This document shows, piece by piece, positions 51,265 to 57,046 of a stretch of DNA of 64,000 nucleotides. Every line of letters starts with the position of its first letter. Positions within the stretch are counted from its first letter, which is position 1. The translations under genes and the position numbers were made by a program. Source of the stretch: a virus (taxonomy: Duplodnaviria > Caudoviricetes); the IMG/VR virus record IMGVR_UViG_3300044723_007907, positions 1 to 64,000 of that record; one strand, given 5' to 3'. Below the pieces are notes generated by a model. That model was not told where the DNA came from, searched no databases, and was given only the letters and a program-made list of their open reading frames with translations.

Positions 51265-51636
51265 TTATTTATCGTTTTGTGAGTGTTGCTTGTACAACAG
51301 CACCGCTTGTTCGAACCATCTCAAACGAAAGTGTAACTCCAACGCGCTAGGACCAGCAACATATCCTGGTTCATCTCGGTGCTCTTCTGGCACGATCTCC
51401 AGTGGTATTTTCTCGAACTCTCCAACAAAAAACACATATGCAGGCATGTCATCATTCAGCATGGCTTGGTCTATTTCATGTAGATACACTCTGGCCCAAT
51501 GTTTGTTGTCAGCATCACGAGCAATCAGCTCATCTATTTCTTGTTGAAATTCTACAGTTCGATTGATCGAGGTATGTTCTGGTGTTAGTTTTGCTGTTTG
51601 ACAAGATGACAATAACAATAACAACAACCAACGCAT
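51265..51636 (-). CDS. Putative lipoprotein
   Basis: Start MRWLLLLLLSSC (lipobox LSS-C) at 51636 behind tTAAATAattac. Confidence 0.65.
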   Translation of the reverse strand: MRWLLLLLLSSCQTAKLTPEHTSINRTVEFQQEIDELIARDADNKHWARVYLHEIDQAMLNDDMPAYVFFVGEFEKIPLEIVPEEHRDEPGYVAGPSALELHFRLRWFEQAVLLYKQHSQNDK

Positions 51637-51648
51637 GTAATTATTTAA

Positions 51649-51685
51649 TAAAAAACCCGTCATGAACCGAGATCCATGACGGGTT
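51649..51685 (-). terminator. Rho-independent terminator after the porin gene
   Basis: Minus strand AACCCGTCATG-10 nt loop-CATGACGGGTT-TTTATT. Confidence 0.8.
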
Positions 51686-51707
51686 GGGGCGTTAAGTGTG
51701 CCAGTGA

Positions 51708-52361
51708 TTAGAACTTGATTCCAATACCAGCGGAAAACACTGTTTCGCTGTCAACATCTTCTGCATCAACATAATCAACTCCAGCGCTTGCCACAAGACC
51801 ACCAAACTCACGACTCAGTAAACCACCGATCTCGTAATAGTTTGTGTCTCCAGCCAACGTGTCAGACACACCAGCCGCACCAGAGATGGTCAGATCAGCA
51901 ACATCGATATCGATGGTGTGACTCAATCCGAGTTCACCGCTGGTCAGACTATCATCCAGATCTTGGTTGATTGTGAGACTGGGACTCAACAACATGTCAA
52001 GTTCCAACGACACGAACAACTCACCACGTGCATCTCCAGGCACATCCTCAAGATGCAAGTAACCGAGTTCCAGGTCAATGTCACCATAGCTTTTAGCTAA
52101 ACCAACAGCGAATTGATAACTGTCAACCGACTGCAAACCTTGATTGGCGAATGCGGACACAAATGCATCAGCAACTCCAACATTGGTGGACAATTTGGCT
52201 TGGACTTGAGTGCTCTCGTCGGAGACTTTTGCTCCACGGAAGTAGTAATCGCTGGTGTACCCGAATCCGAGTTCACCTTGAAAACTGCTACCGCTTTCAG
52301 CAGCACCTGCGTTGATAGTGAGAGCGCATACTAGCGCCAACAACTTTAGTTTCGTTTTCAT
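51708..52361 (-). CDS. Outer-membrane beta-barrel, TorF/Gcw_chp-like putative porin
   Basis: Sec signal MKTKLKLLALVCALTINAGA, TSDYYFRG motif, alternating beta-strands, C-terminal GIGIKF. Confidence 0.8.
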   Translation of the reverse strand: MKTKLKLLALVCALTINAGAAESGSSFQGELGFGYTSDYYFRGAKVSDESTQVQAKLSTNVGVADAFVSAFANQGLQSVDSYQFAVGLAKSYGDIDLELGYLHLEDVPGDARGELFVSLELDMLLSPSLTINQDLDDSLTSGELGLSHTIDIDVADLTISGAAGVSDTLAGDTNYYEIGGLLSREFGGLVASAGVDYVDAEDVDSETVFSAGIGIKF

Positions 52362-52369
52362 ACAGTATT

Positions 52370-52398
52370 ATTATAGTGTATGATACACGTGAATGCAA
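52370..52398 (-). promoter_or_regulatory. Sigma70-type promoter for the porin gene
   Basis: Minus strand TTGCAT-17 nt-TATAAT, 8 nt before ATG. Confidence 0.75.
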
Positions 52399-52403
52399 CT
52401 CAA

Positions 52404-53411
52404 TCAAAAGTCATCATCAAGAGCTCCAGAATTTTGATAATCTGTAACCTTGGTTTCGAAGAAATTCTTTTGCTTGCTCAAATCAATTGTTTCGCTCAAC
52501 CAAGGAAACGGATTAACATCCTTATCGTATCTGAACTTCATACCCAAACCTTCGAGTCTACGATTGGCGATGTGTTGCATGTAATCAACAAACATTTCCG
52601 CGTTGAGACCGAGTATTCCGGTTGGAAGCACATCCTTTGCGTATTCAACTTCCAGCTTAACTGCATCCTTGAGATATTCAGTCAATTCATTATCTAGTTC
52701 TTCGTTCCAAACATCAGGGTGCTGTTCACGTATCTTGTTCAACAAATTTGTACCAAATTTTATATGTAAACTCTCATCACGTAGAGTGTATTGTATCTGC
52801 TCAGCAATACCAGGTATCTTTTCTGACAGAGCCAATAGCATAGCAAAACCACTGAAAAAGAATGTACCTTCACAAACAATCCAGTAAATAAATGCAGCTT
52901 TGATGATCTCTCGAACTCCTTCTGGTGTTTGGCTGTCCACAGGATTGGTTGCCAAATCGCTAGTTATTTTCATCAAGAAATCATCTTTGGCTTTGATGCT
53001 TGGTATCGTTTCATATGCTTGGTATACCTCGTTTATATCAAGGTCCAAACTGTCACATATATAAACTATCGTGTCGTTGTGCAAACACTCTTCATACATC
53101 TGTCTGCTCATGTACTGTCGGCATTCCGGATCAGTAACGTATCTGAACATGGTGAACAGATTGTTACCAACAAGACTCTCACTACCAGCGAAAAAACCCA
53201 AACATCTCTTGATGAGCAATCGTTCATCATCAGACAAAACATTGTCTTTTTTCCAGTTCTGTATGTCCTTCACCATCGGTACCTCCTCTGGTGTCCAGTT
53301 GTTGTTTTTTCCTAGCTTGTATAGATCCCAAGCCCATTTGTTCGTGTGTGGTAATATCTGGTTTACACCAGCTGTATCTTGTCCTAATATTTTATCTGAA
53401 TGTTGTGTCAT
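52404..53411 (-). CDS. nrdB: Ribonucleotide reductase beta subunit, class Ic-like (no radical Tyr)
   Basis: FFAGSESLVGNN, EECLHNDTIVYIC, VCEGTFF, RDESLH, NFFETKVTDYQ. Start set at MTQHSDKIL (53411) behind cTAAATA. Confidence 0.95.
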   Translation of the reverse strand: MTQHSDKILGQDTAGVNQILPHTNKWAWDLYKLGKNNNWTPEEVPMVKDIQNWKKDNVLSDDERLLIKRCLGFFAGSESLVGNNLFTMFRYVTDPECRQYMSRQMYEECLHNDTIVYICDSLDLDINEVYQAYETIPSIKAKDDFLMKITSDLATNPVDSQTPEGVREIIKAAFIYWIVCEGTFFFSGFAMLLALSEKIPGIAEQIQYTLRDESLHIKFGTNLLNKIREQHPDVWNEELDNELTEYLKDAVKLEVEYAKDVLPTGILGLNAEMFVDYMQHIANRRLEGLGMKFRYDKDVNPFPWLSETIDLSKQKNFFETKVTDYQNSGALDDDF

Positions 53412-53502
53412 ACGTGTGTATTTAGTATACAACATATGCGCAAAACAGCAAGTTTGAATAAAAAAATATTTTTTTTCTCAAGTACTGAATTATAACAACA
53501 AG

Positions 53503-53850
53503 TTACAGAAGAAATACCTGCTTTCCTGTGTATCCATTGTATATTCCTTGTGGGCCGGCGGTGCTATCTGTATACTCATCATACGTTACAGAACGCCCGG
53601 TGGTGTCAATGGCAGATTTTTGTGTTACTGTTTGTTCTCTGTATTGTTCCGGTTGGTAGTATTCTAGATCCATTCCTGGGTTGCTCGTGCATTTGCCTTG
53701 ATTGTCCATTGTGTGTGAACCCGGTGTATGGTTGTATTGATACAAGTCTAATTCTCTATATGTTACTAACTTACCCGTTGAATCTACACGGGTCTTAGTT
53801 GTTATTATAGGTGTCGCTCTTCTTATGTATGATTTATCAGTACCTGCCAT
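53503..53850 (-). CDS. Hypothetical protein between nrdA and nrdB
   Basis: 115-aa Thr/Tyr-rich ORF starting 8 nt after the nrdA stop. Internal near-repeat DSTGKLVTYRE / DTTGRSVTYDE. Confidence 0.55.
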   Translation of the reverse strand: MAGTDKSYIRRATPIITTKTRVDSTGKLVTYRELDLYQYNHTPGSHTMDNQGKCTSNPGMDLEYYQPEQYREQTVTQKSAIDTTGRSVTYDEYTDSTAGPQGIYNGYTGKQVFLL

Positions 53851-53858
53851 GTCAATAT

Positions 53859-56318
53859 TTATTGACAGGCTTCACATTCTCCTGGGGGACTGTTCAAACT
53901 ACAAGCTTTAATATTCTCTGGTTCTGGATCCGAACTGTTGCTCACGGTGCTCTTCTCAATCTTGCTGGCAGCTTGATTTCTCAGATAGTATGTTGTTTTC
54001 AATCCATGGTTCCATGCATGCATGTACAAGTCGTTCAAGAACTTCAAACTGGTTTGATTGTTGTATAGATTCAAGCTCTGTGCCTGATCGATCCATCTTT
54101 GTCTAGCAGCAGCTGATTCAATCATTTTGAACTGATCTTGCTGAAAGCTTGTCTTGTACTTCTGCTTGATGTCTTCAGGTAGATCAATCAATTTGATTTG
54201 CATCACATCACCATCAGTTCTCTTGATTTCGTTTATCAATTCTTGATTCCACAGACCTAATGATTTCATGTCTTTGACGAAATGCTCGTTCACCATGGTG
54301 AACTCTCCACTCAGTGTGCTGTAAACATACAACACACTATAATATGGTTCGATGCTGGGGCTACAACCAACAATGCTGCTGATTGTGGCGGTGGGTGCAA
54401 TTGCCATTGTGTTGCTGTTGCGCATTCCGGTTTTGATTACTTGTTTTTTGAGAGCTTCCCAATCTAAATCTCCACGGGTCGTTCCTAAAGCTCTTTCTGA
54501 ACGAGTGCTCATGAGAGTTCTGTATGTGTCCATCGGAAATTCTCCTTTGCTCCAGCTGCTACCTTCATAACTTGGATAGCTGCCACGTTCTTTGGCAAGC
54601 TTGTTGCTAGCCGCGATTGTGTGATACGAGATGTATTCGTACAATTGACCACTCAGTTTGACCGCTTGTTCACTATCGAATCTGATATCCAGAGCATAAA
54701 ACATATCATGCCAGCCCATGCTACCCATGCCCACTGGACGATGTGTCGTGTTGCTACGCTTAGCTTCTTCAGTAGGATAAAAGTTGATGTCGATGACATT
54801 GTCAAGCATGCGGCTGCCTGTGGTGATGGTTTTTTTGAGTTTGTCGTAATCAATCTCCGGTCCATTATCGGTATATTTGATGTGATTGGCTAGATTGATA
54901 CTACCCAGATTGCACACGGCTGTTTCACCATATTGTTTGACACTCCGGCTGTTTTTATTATATTGTGTGGCTTTGGTGTTGAGTGTTATCTCTGTACACA
55001 AATTGCTGCTATGTACCACACCTGCATGTTGTTGTGGGTTACGTATGTTACAAGGATCTTTGAACGTGATCCACGGATGTCCAGTTTCGAACAGACTGCG
55101 GAGCATTTTTTTCCAGAGTTCCTTGGCATTCACTTCTTTGAATATTCTCAACTCACCGGCCTTACCTCTCTTGACATATTCATAATACTTTTTCTCGAAC
55201 TCTTTACCATACAAGTCATGCAAATCCGGCACTTCATTCGTTGTAAACAAATACCATGGCTTGTCTTCAGCGACACACTTCAAGAACAAGTCTGGAATCC
55301 AATGAGCTGTGTTCATATCATGTGTTCGCTTGCGATCATCTCCAGTGTTTTTTCTGAGTTGAATGAAGTCTTCTATATCTGCATGCCACGTTTCCAGATA
55401 AGCGCATCCAGCGCCACGTCTTTTGCCACCCTGATTGACCGCTGTTAACATGTCACCATACAGCTTCCAAAAATAAACCGCACCCTGAGTTTCACCATTG
55501 GTTCCGGTTATGTAGCTGTTTGTGGCCCGGAAGTTCGTCAAGTCCATGCCCAATCCACCAGCGTATTTGTTTTTCAAAGCCTCTTGTAACAAACCATCAA
55601 ATATACCAACGATGCTGTCTTCAAATGTGCTCAGGAAACAACTGCTCAGCTGATTGAAAGTGCCACCGCTGTTGAACAGTGTAGGTGTGCTGCACATGTA
55701 ATCAAAGCTGCTCAACAAGTTGTAGTATTTGATAGCCCACTGCTCACGATCCGTCTCCTCACGCAACGCCAATCCCATGGCTACCCGCATCCAGAATGCC
55801 TGTGGTGTTTCCATTTTCTGACCATCTATATGGTGCAAGTATCTATCAAAAACTGTTTGTAATCCGAGATATGCAAAATTCTGATCACGGGAGATCTTCA
55901 ACTGATCACTCAATAATTTCAAATCCATGCGAGCTAACTCTTTATTGACAATACCGGCTTTTATCAATTTCTTCAAATTCACGATGAATGTTGTACGGTA
56001 TTGCAATTCAAATGCATCACTGTCAACACCCGTGCCAAACACTTCTTTATATATGGTGTTGATCAGCAGTTTAGCTGCCACATACTTGTAGTTTGGTTCT
56101 TGTTCAATCATGCTTCGAGCACTCTTGACCAAGCTGTTGTCTATCTCACTTGTCCTTATACCATCAAACAATTTGATCCTGGCATTGAACATAACCGCTT
56201 CACTATCAACACCATCATACGATTGACCGTTCTTGTCAATACAGCTTCTCTCCACACAAGCTCGTATTTTTTGTTCGTTAAATTGTTCCAGTCTACCGTT
56301 TCGTTTCTTAACATTCAT
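53859..56318 (-). CDS. nrdA: Ribonucleotide reductase alpha subunit with N-terminal ATP cone
   Basis: MNVKKRNGRLE ATP cone, STPTLFNSG, QLSSCF, NQGGKRRGA, SSNLCTEI, VCNLGSINL, AIAPTATIS, KTTYYLR, C-terminal CSLNSPPGECEACQ. Confidence 0.97.
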   Translation of the reverse strand: MNVKKRNGRLEQFNEQKIRACVERSCIDKNGQSYDGVDSEAVMFNARIKLFDGIRTSEIDNSLVKSARSMIEQEPNYKYVAAKLLINTIYKEVFGTGVDSDAFELQYRTTFIVNLKKLIKAGIVNKELARMDLKLLSDQLKISRDQNFAYLGLQTVFDRYLHHIDGQKMETPQAFWMRVAMGLALREETDREQWAIKYYNLLSSFDYMCSTPTLFNSGGTFNQLSSCFLSTFEDSIVGIFDGLLQEALKNKYAGGLGMDLTNFRATNSYITGTNGETQGAVYFWKLYGDMLTAVNQGGKRRGAGCAYLETWHADIEDFIQLRKNTGDDRKRTHDMNTAHWIPDLFLKCVAEDKPWYLFTTNEVPDLHDLYGKEFEKKYYEYVKRGKAGELRIFKEVNAKELWKKMLRSLFETGHPWITFKDPCNIRNPQQHAGVVHSSNLCTEITLNTKATQYNKNSRSVKQYGETAVCNLGSINLANHIKYTDNGPEIDYDKLKKTITTGSRMLDNVIDINFYPTEEAKRSNTTHRPVGMGSMGWHDMFYALDIRFDSEQAVKLSGQLYEYISYHTIAASNKLAKERGSYPSYEGSSWSKGEFPMDTYRTLMSTRSERALGTTRGDLDWEALKKQVIKTGMRNSNTMAIAPTATISSIVGCSPSIEPYYSVLYVYSTLSGEFTMVNEHFVKDMKSLGLWNQELINEIKRTDGDVMQIKLIDLPEDIKQKYKTSFQQDQFKMIESAAARQRWIDQAQSLNLYNNQTSLKFLNDLYMHAWNHGLKTTYYLRNQAASKIEKSTVSNSSDPEPENIKACSLNSPPGECEACQ

Positions 56319-56352
56319 GTGTATAAGATATTAGTCTATTCAAGACCAAATA

Positions 56353-56802
56353 TCAAAGACTTTTACCAGAAAAATATGCTATGATTGATCCCACAAGCGC
56401 GACAATACCACCAATGATCGCTGTTTTCATTTGCCAACCACCGGTTCGATCGATCTTGTTTTGCTCTGATAATGATCGCATCATCGACTCCATGCTGTTG
56501 AATTTTGTGTCTATCCAGCCCTCGAGACGACCGAACTTGCTCTCGAGTTTTTGATGTATTGATTCGAATTTGAGACTATGCTCACGAGACAGGTGTGATA
56601 TTTTTTCGTCCATTTGCTCACGTAACCCGCGTAGTTTGCCCTCAACGCTGTTGACTCTCGTAACAAGCGATGGATGCCCGTTTCCTTTATAGACGGTTTC
56701 ATACAAGTCGTCGACCTCTTTTCTGATTTTATCGAGTTCATCTTCGATTCTTTTTTCTAGTTTAGTCAAGTCACGACTTTCATCATTCTTATCTGCACTC
56801 AT
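56353..56802 (-). CDS. Coiled-coil protein with C-terminal TM helix
   Basis: Heptad-rich body and C-terminal AIIGGIVALVGSIIAYF. Variant late promoter cATAAGTA. Confidence 0.65.
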   Translation of the reverse strand: MSADKNDESRDLTKLEKRIEDELDKIRKEVDDLYETVYKGNGHPSLVTRVNSVEGKLRGLREQMDEKISHLSREHSLKFESIHQKLESKFGRLEGWIDTKFNSMESMMRSLSEQNKIDRTGGWQMKTAIIGGIVALVGSIIAYFSGKSL

Positions 56803-56821
56803 GTACAGATACTTATGATTA

Positions 56822-57046
56822 TCAAGCGTTAAATCTGTTGATGATATGCCCGGTTGGTAATTTTATTATGTATCCCATCGCCATGTTGTTGTTTTTTGTG
56901 ACGATCGTGCAACTGTCTCCTCCCACAATCGGACCGTTCACTAACTCTCCAGGTACATTGAATCTGTTGACAAACGCACCAGTTTGCATGTCTATAATAA
57001 CAAACATTCCAGGACCATCCGGGCGTACTGAGTATGATTTATTCAT
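56822..57046 (-). CDS. Hypothetical protein
   Basis: 74-aa ORF overlapping the upstream gene. Confidence 0.55.
   Translation of the reverse strand: MNKSYSVRPDGPGMFVIIDMQTGAFVNRFNVPGELVNGPIVGGDSCTIVTKNNNMAMGYIIKLPTGHIINRFNA

Follow-up and report, generated by a model that had tools for sequence, protein, structure and literature searches.

The DNA analyzed here, referred to as the window, is a stretch of 64,000 nucleotides that corresponds to positions 1–64,000 of the 79.7 kb IMG/VR virus record IMGVR_UViG_3300044723_007907, which is rated 34% complete. The window carries genes for a tail sheath, a baseplate wedge, a portal, and tail fibers, and these myovirus genes indicate that the phage is large and contractile-tailed. 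It is probably a marine phage; one close homologue of its ribonucleotide reductase (RNR) beta subunit comes from Tara Oceans, and the contigs that encode such homologues reach 238 kb.

The nrdA–nrdB locus

The two RNR genes, nrdA and nrdB, are encoded on the minus strand together with a short spacer and a downstream gene (Table 1). The residues of NrdB are numbered according to the 343-aa open reading frame (ORF). The initial annotation had placed this gene at 52404–53411, which holds for the 335-aa form that starts at an internal ATG (Met9) at position 53411 and has the length typical of most homologues, but the full ORF reaches 53435. The Pfam family PF00268 (Ribonuc_red_sm) spans the whole protein with an E-value of 5e-74. 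In comparisons of nrdB with its relatives, pN was 0.11–0.23 and pS was 0.76–0.95 with saturated synonymous sites, and this low pN against a saturated pS argues for strong purifying selection on the gene.

The alpha subunit consists of an ATP-cone, an all-alpha domain, and a barrel, as identified by Pfam. Its residues C227, N439, C441, E443, C469, and Y777/Y778 correspond to C225, N437, C439, E441, C462, and Y730/Y731 of the E. coli protein, and a C-terminal CEAC pair is formed by C815-x-x-C818. In 68 of 68 related loci, nrdA is found directly upstream of nrdB. In close relatives, the two genes are separated by 0 to about 670 bp, and the Thr/Tyr/Gln/Gly-rich ORF that lies in the spacer of the window had no homologue in the 68 related loci and matched no Pfam family. 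As a side aspect, one relative with an 83% identical NrdB (L003:613-4302) has a fractured nrdA in a split-intein arrangement, in which the N-terminal part of NrdA with an intein N-splicing domain is followed by a free-standing GIY-YIG endonuclease gene and then by an intein C-splicing domain with the C-terminal part of NrdA, whereas the nrdA of the window is intact.

An Rfam search of positions 51600–57000 gave no match, and the promoter and terminator scans remained at chance level, apart from one strong terminator behind the gene that follows nrdB. The six closest viral loci encode a counterpart of the beta-barrel-like protein from this downstream gene at 33–42% identity, and the alphaproteobacterial genomes that are described below yielded none.

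Table 1. Positions of genes, functional residues, and further features at the nrdA–nrdB locus of the window (Ct, Chlamydia trachomatis R2c).
Feature	Position	Strand	Remarks
nrdA, cognate alpha subunit	53859–56318	minus	819 aa, one ATP-cone; Pfam ATP-cone, lgN, and barrel domains
nrdA–nrdB spacer	53436–53858	minus	holds a 115-aa ORF of doubtful reality
Spacer ORF, Thr/Tyr/Gln/Gly-rich	53503–53850	minus	115 aa, reality doubtful
nrdB, class Ic-type RNR beta subunit	52404–53435	minus	343-aa ORF; PF00268; match to Ct R2c; AlphaFold2 fold match
Trp47, radical-transfer/electron-relay Trp	53295–53297	minus	Ct Trp51, E. coli Trp48; invariant in alignments A1–A4
Glu86 (codon GAG), first metal ligand	53178–53180	minus	Ct Glu89, E. 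coli Asp84
Glu116-x-x-His119, metal ligands, first ExxH motif	53079–53090	minus	invariant in alignments A1–A4
Glu116 codon	53088–53090	minus	Ct Glu120
His119 codon	53079–53081	minus	Ct His123
Ile123 (codon ATA), radical-tyrosine position	53067–53069	minus	Ct Phe127, E. coli Tyr122
Tyr125 (H+6), conserved, separate from radical site	53061–53063	minus	Ct Tyr129; opposite E. coli His124
Glu189, bridging metal ligand	52869–52871	minus	Ct Glu193; invariant in alignments
Glu221-x-x-His224, metal ligands, second ExxH motif	52764–52775	minus	Ct Glu227, His230
Tyr333, C-terminal radical-transfer Tyr	52437–52439	minus	Ct Tyr338, E. coli Tyr356
Gene for signal-peptide beta-barrel-like protein, just downstream of nrdB	51708–52361	minus	weak Gcw_chp/TIGR02001-type match, E 0.005
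Terminator, 14-bp stem	51654–51685	minus	after the beta-barrel-like gene

Radical site, metal ligands, and transfer residues of NrdB

Among proteins with a solved structure, the best relative of the phage NrdB is R2c of C. trachomatis (1syy, 4d8f, 2ani; E 1e-110), followed by 6y2n (E 9e-100), and ordinary class Ia proteins scored far lower. The first ExxH motif, whose reading E-E-C-L-H-N-D-T-I-V-Y-I-C was verified in the ORF, aligns without any gap to the chlamydial protein (EECLHNDTIVYICDSL versus EEAVHTHTFLYICESL), with EECLHNDTIVY standing opposite EEAVHTHTFLY. When the E. coli NrdB (taken from NC_000913) was aligned using MAFFT, Ile123 came to lie on Tyr122, Glu86 on Asp84, and Tyr333 on Tyr356. 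Both alignments agree with the initial annotation that the radical tyrosine is replaced by an isoleucine encoded by ATA, and its assignment of a glutamate as the first metal ligand is likewise borne out by the position of Glu86 opposite the chlamydial Glu89 and the E. coli Asp84. All six metal ligands (E86, E116, H119, E189, E221, and H224) are kept, and Tyr216 is the equivalent of Tyr222 in the chlamydial R2c. The radical-transfer tryptophan is Trp47, which is part of the stretch NNNW-TPEE and is neither of the tryptophans of the KWAWDLY motif.

As a tyrosine is present two residues after Ile123, it was in principle conceivable that the protein is a shifted class Ia enzyme that forms a stable radical on another residue, such as Tyr125 at H+6. 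However, the register was unshifted in every alignment, and an alignment of the H+6 tyrosine to the E. coli Tyr122, which the initial annotation had named as evidence against its own reading, did not emerge, as Tyr125 falls on His124. The H+6 tyrosine is also found in the chlamydial R2c and in those Asp/Tyr relatives that keep the tyrosine at H+4; betaproteobacterial relatives of this kind read HTHAYQY and thus have a tyrosine at both positions. Two residues further along the helix, the side chain of Tyr125 would, moreover, face away from the metal site. With gap-free alignments and with relatives that possess both tyrosines, the shifted register was rejected, and we regard a radical on Tyr125 as very improbable.

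The AlphaFold2 model of the phage NrdB, which was generated with an input alignment of 40 sequences, reached a mean pLDDT of 88.3. Its top fold match was the Mn/Fe NrdB of C. trachomatis (4m1i), with TM scores of 0.89–0.92, an rmsd of 1.4–2.0 Å, and 48–51% identity. The phage protein combines several of the features by which class Ic is recognized, namely the ferritin-like R2 fold, a glutamate as first ligand together with the five other ligands, and a non-oxidizable residue at the tyrosine site, and the residues required for radical transfer are also in place, with W47 and Y333 in NrdB and Y777, Y778, and C441 in the adjacent NrdA. A narrow definition of class Ic that demands a phenylalanine at the radical site does not cover the protein, as it has an isoleucine there, but broader definitions also admit Leu, Ile, and Val (Hogbom 2010, as referred to in PMC3824934). 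Class Ia, which is characterized by an aspartate as first ligand and a tyrosine at H+4, does not cover it either, as these positions are occupied by Glu86 and Ile123.

The Ile/Val clade and its cellular members

In the initial annotation, isoleucine had been regarded as an atypical substitute at the radical site. This view could not be maintained, as an entire clade of viral and cellular NrdB proteins is fixed for Ile or Val, and these residues are also documented in the literature. Among the 120 closest metagenome NrdBs, which are 77–94% identical to the phage protein, 108 carry Ile at the radical position and the remaining 12 carry Val, and the string ECLHNDT-x-VY is otherwise invariant. Among IMG/VR loci, Val prevails with 53 of 64, and Ile is found in 9 of 64. 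The occurrence of Leu, Ile, and Val in place of Phe in R2c proteins is documented by Hogbom (2010), as referred to in PMC3824934. A preprint (PMC12918982; bioRxiv, February 2026) describes 269 class I alpha sequences from GOV 2.0 that are closest to NrdAz and whose partner beta subunits lack the radical tyrosine and have Ile or Val instead. This type was named "subclass Ic-like", no member of the clade was characterized, and its abundance was anti-correlated with predicted iron (PMC12918982).

In representatives of clusters at 50% identity, the radical site holds Phe, Leu, Ile, or Val where the first ligand is a glutamate and Tyr where it is an aspartate, with the exception of a small Glu/Tyr group. 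In a 77-row tree, in which the chlamydial type was represented by its close relative L069 (626 bits to 1syy), the Ile/Val NrdBs form a single clade (SH-aLRT 97). This clade sits within a Glu-ligand group (SH-aLRT 93) that also includes the chlamydial type and the Glu/Leu, Glu/Phe, and Glu/Tyr groups, and the tree gives no resolved order among these five. In a bootstrapped tree, the support for the Ile/Val clade was 100/100. Near the ligands, the clade has fixed residues of its own, namely C117/S117, L118, N120, V124, C188, I214, T217, and I225, and those from L118 onward set it apart from the Phe-type R2c proteins.

Several side observations were made in the course of these comparisons. The proteins that combine a glutamate as first ligand with a retained tyrosine (P0144, P0153, P0184, P0199, P0207, and P0250) cluster beside the R2c groups and could be an intermediate or have a different type of cofactor. 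In another set of homologues (P0148, P0156, P0168, P0176, P0185, P0197, P0240, and P0242), several ligands are replaced by Ser, Gly, Ala, Gln, Lys, or Leu, and the radical site is occupied by Cys, Phe, or Ile; these may be metal-free proteins or R2-like proteins that are not part of an RNR. Many R2c-type homologues (P0122, P0124, P0128–P0130, P0132–P0134, and others) have a length of about 610–660 aa and match in two stretches, which points to inteins that interrupt the beta subunit close to its ligand motifs. Two Ile/Val-type NrdBs (L066 and L067) are encoded on contigs of 7 kb and 44 kb in metagenome-assembled genomes (MAGs) labeled as Deinococcota and Pseudomonadales, and they group with viral sequences. 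Most likely, these are phage contigs that were mis-binned into unrelated MAGs.

A search of genome contigs with the single protein gave no match. A profile scan of species genomes, in contrast, identified an Ile-type NrdB with 70% identity to the phage protein in an Alphaproteobacteria MAG, where the gene is located on a contig of 1.32 Mb (L068). It is flanked by genes for NrdA, a dCMP deaminase, an ASCH protein, UDG, a NUDIX protein, DinB, and a carbonic anhydrase, and these flanking genes indicate that the neighborhood is cellular. Seven relatives of this genome, with sizes of 1.3–1.6 Mb, carry a close NrdB homologue with 66–73% identity. The motif EECLHNHT(I/V)VYIC is present in all six copies that cover the site, five times with Ile and once with Val, and the seventh is a partial copy that lacks the site. 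In relatives further removed, NrdB is of the usual Asp/Tyr type. The lineage with the Ile/Val-type NrdAB comprises the genomes G001 and G004–G010 (L068:1107-4996; L152–L158), which are small MAGs of 1.3–2.2 Mb.

In five of these genomes (G001, G004, G005, G008, and G009), which are MAGs without a reported completeness, the Ile-type NrdAB is the only RNR that was found, with the NrdA next to it as the single catalytic subunit encountered, and a search for class III RNR in these five gave none. Provided that this sole-RNR status is borne out, the entire dNTP supply of these bacteria comes from the Ile-type enzyme, which must therefore be active. On the basis of these gene inventories, it is very likely that the Ile form of NrdB works. 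A cellular alphaproteobacterial lineage with an Ile-form NrdAB as the only RNR found is the new observation of this study.

In the bootstrapped tree, the viral subclade of the phage protein (99/97) is sister to the alphaproteobacterial NrdB clade, and the support for the pair is 100/99. This sister relation of viral and cellular clades points to an exchange of the gene between phages and the alphaproteobacterial lineage. An origin of the phage nrdB from Chlamydia or the PVC group was also considered and rejected, as the nearest cellular relatives are those of the alphaproteobacterial MAGs with 66–73% identity, as opposed to about 50% for the chlamydial type. In a check for a host link, the porin-like protein and the DUF1501 protein of the phage had no homologue in five of the Ile-type alphaproteobacterial genomes.

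As the canonical radical residue is missing, it was also considered that NrdB might be decaying or have no catalytic role, perhaps serving as a structural partner in the manner of the yeast Rnr4, with the phage making use of the RNR of its host. However, none of the six ligands and no residue of the transfer pathway is missing, the gene is under strong purifying selection and always paired with an intact nrdA, and proteins of this type are the only NrdB in the related cellular genomes. We therefore discarded a decayed or non-catalytic copy as an explanation that is exceedingly unlikely.

Proposed mechanism, metal content, and relation to known systems

In our view, nrdA and nrdB probably encode a working class I RNR with a class Ic-type beta subunit that would, by analogy, carry a Mn(IV)/Fe(III) cofactor and function without a tyrosyl radical. 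This assignment is based on the chlamydial R2c as best solved relative, on the kept ligands and transfer pathway, and on the position of the Ile/Val clade inside the Glu-ligand group, and it is further supported by the purifying selection, the intact and always adjacent NrdA, and the sole-RNR status in five genomes. The initial annotation had described the protein as a class Ic (R2c)-type beta subunit that is free of a tyrosyl radical, and sequence and fold back this description, as does the phylogeny at the level of the Glu-ligand group. That the phage enzyme is active without a tyrosine radical is strongly suggested by this evidence as a whole; that its metals are Mn and Fe is suggested less firmly, by analogy with the chlamydial enzyme.

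In the proposed mechanism, the dimetal site made up of the four glutamates and two histidines (E86, E116, H119, E189, E221, and H224) would react with O2, and the oxidizing equivalent would be stored on the metal cluster itself, with no tyrosyl radical being used. By analogy with C. trachomatis, the cluster would be Mn(IV)/Fe(III) with the Mn in site 1 beside Ile123. This isoleucine would, like a phenylalanine, do no more than provide a non-oxidizable side chain that fills a hydrophobic pocket. In each turnover, the hole would pass Trp47 and Tyr333 near the C-terminus of NrdB and then reach Tyr777/Tyr778 and Cys441 in NrdA; by reducing NDPs, this subunit would supply the dNDPs from which phage DNA is made.

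With regard to the metals, we know of no rule by which the sequence of an R2c scaffold would tell Mn/Fe from Fe/Fe or Mn/Mn. A glutamate as first ligand is not sufficient to set the chemistry, as a sister clade keeps this glutamate together with a tyrosine. The same scaffold with the same radical-free logic might hold another cluster, for which a high-valent Mn2 oxidant like that of class Id and a diiron oxidant of the Fe(IV)/Fe(III) type come into question; in this case, the Ile/Val clade would represent a biochemically distinct subclass. The clade is indeed separate and well supported, its own fixed residues near the site differ from those of the Phe-type R2c proteins and in this respect point against a Mn/Fe class Ic enzyme, and the preprint mentioned above sets the clade apart as "Ic-like" with a cofactor that is not known (PMC12918982). 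On the other hand, the first-sphere ligands are identical to those of the chlamydial R2c, and the overall identity is about 50%. Class Id proteins keep the tyrosine and have a lysine near the site, and these features are not evident in the phage NrdB. Taken together, we consider another cluster unlikely. A rather low probability also applies to the view that the Ile/Val clade is a biochemically distinct, iron-sparing class I subclass in a lineage of small-genome marine Alphaproteobacteria, with no other RNR found there, and in large phages that exchanged the gene with this lineage, in which case the aliphatic residue and the clade-specific changes near the site would set a metal pair or a redox tuning of its own.

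Returning to the class Ic-type enzyme with Mn and Fe, the tolerance of the phage RNR toward oxidative or nitrosative stress that the initial annotation had suggested is a conjecture carried over from the chlamydial hypothesis, and for a phage of the ocean a benefit from saving iron would be no less plausible. With a demand of one iron instead of two, such an RNR could be relevant to phages in iron-poor water.

The Ile/Val type is already described in print, and the phage NrdB conforms to what is usual in a large clade of viral and cellular proteins. As the central finding had been published before, the value of the phage protein is that of a lead for biochemistry and not that of a discovery. 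To our knowledge, class Ic has been studied almost solely in Chlamydia. The large, abundant, and environmentally relevant Ile/Val clade makes it possible to test whether a phenylalanine is needed, and what determines the metal choice in the scaffold. In five genomes, no RNR other than its cellular orthologues was found; these orthologues speak for a fully competent Ile form, and they offer a non-viral system for study.

In comparison to known systems, the phage enzyme matches the "subclass Ic-like" clade by description, with its viral contig, an alpha subunit near NrdAz, and Ile or Val in the beta subunit, but a cellular alphaproteobacterial lineage that has the Ile/Val type as the only RNR found is not reported there (PMC12918982). 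With R2lox, the phage NrdB shares the ferritin-like fold, the absence of a radical tyrosine, and, by analogy, the Mn/Fe metals. However, R2lox has neither a C-terminal tyrosine nor an R1 partner (PMC3824934), whereas the phage has Tyr333 and an adjacent nrdA, and the match to R2lox reached just E 1e-12.

The Phe-type R2c proteins of Actinomycetota and Pseudomonadota (6Y2N; Saccharopolyspora, Nocardiopsis, Bradyrhizobium) resemble the phage NrdB in the glutamate and in all ligands at 44–47% identity, but they form a separate, well-supported clade with the Glu/Phe signature, in which the radical site is occupied by Phe. For the phage NrdA, the nearest protein of solved structure is the class Ia NrdA of P. 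aeruginosa (5IM3; E 8e-248), which we take to be of the NrdAz type. Its catalytic residues are conserved in the phage protein, but it has 963 residues, as compared to 819 in the phage NrdA with its single ATP-cone and its tyrosine-free beta partner.

A further known system is the class Ic R2c of C. trachomatis, which uses a Mn(IV)/Fe(III) cofactor (PMC8463856). The phage protein shares with this enzyme (1SYY, 4D8F, 4M1I) about 50% identity over the full length, a TM score of about 0.9, the glutamate as first ligand, all six ligands, the equivalents of W51, Y222, Y338, and F197, and a non-oxidizable residue at the radical site. It differs in having Ile where the chlamydial protein has Phe127, in the residues C117, L118, N120, V124, C188, and I225 beside the ligands, and in a partner NrdA with one ATP-cone, and its carrier is a phage and not an intracellular pathogen.
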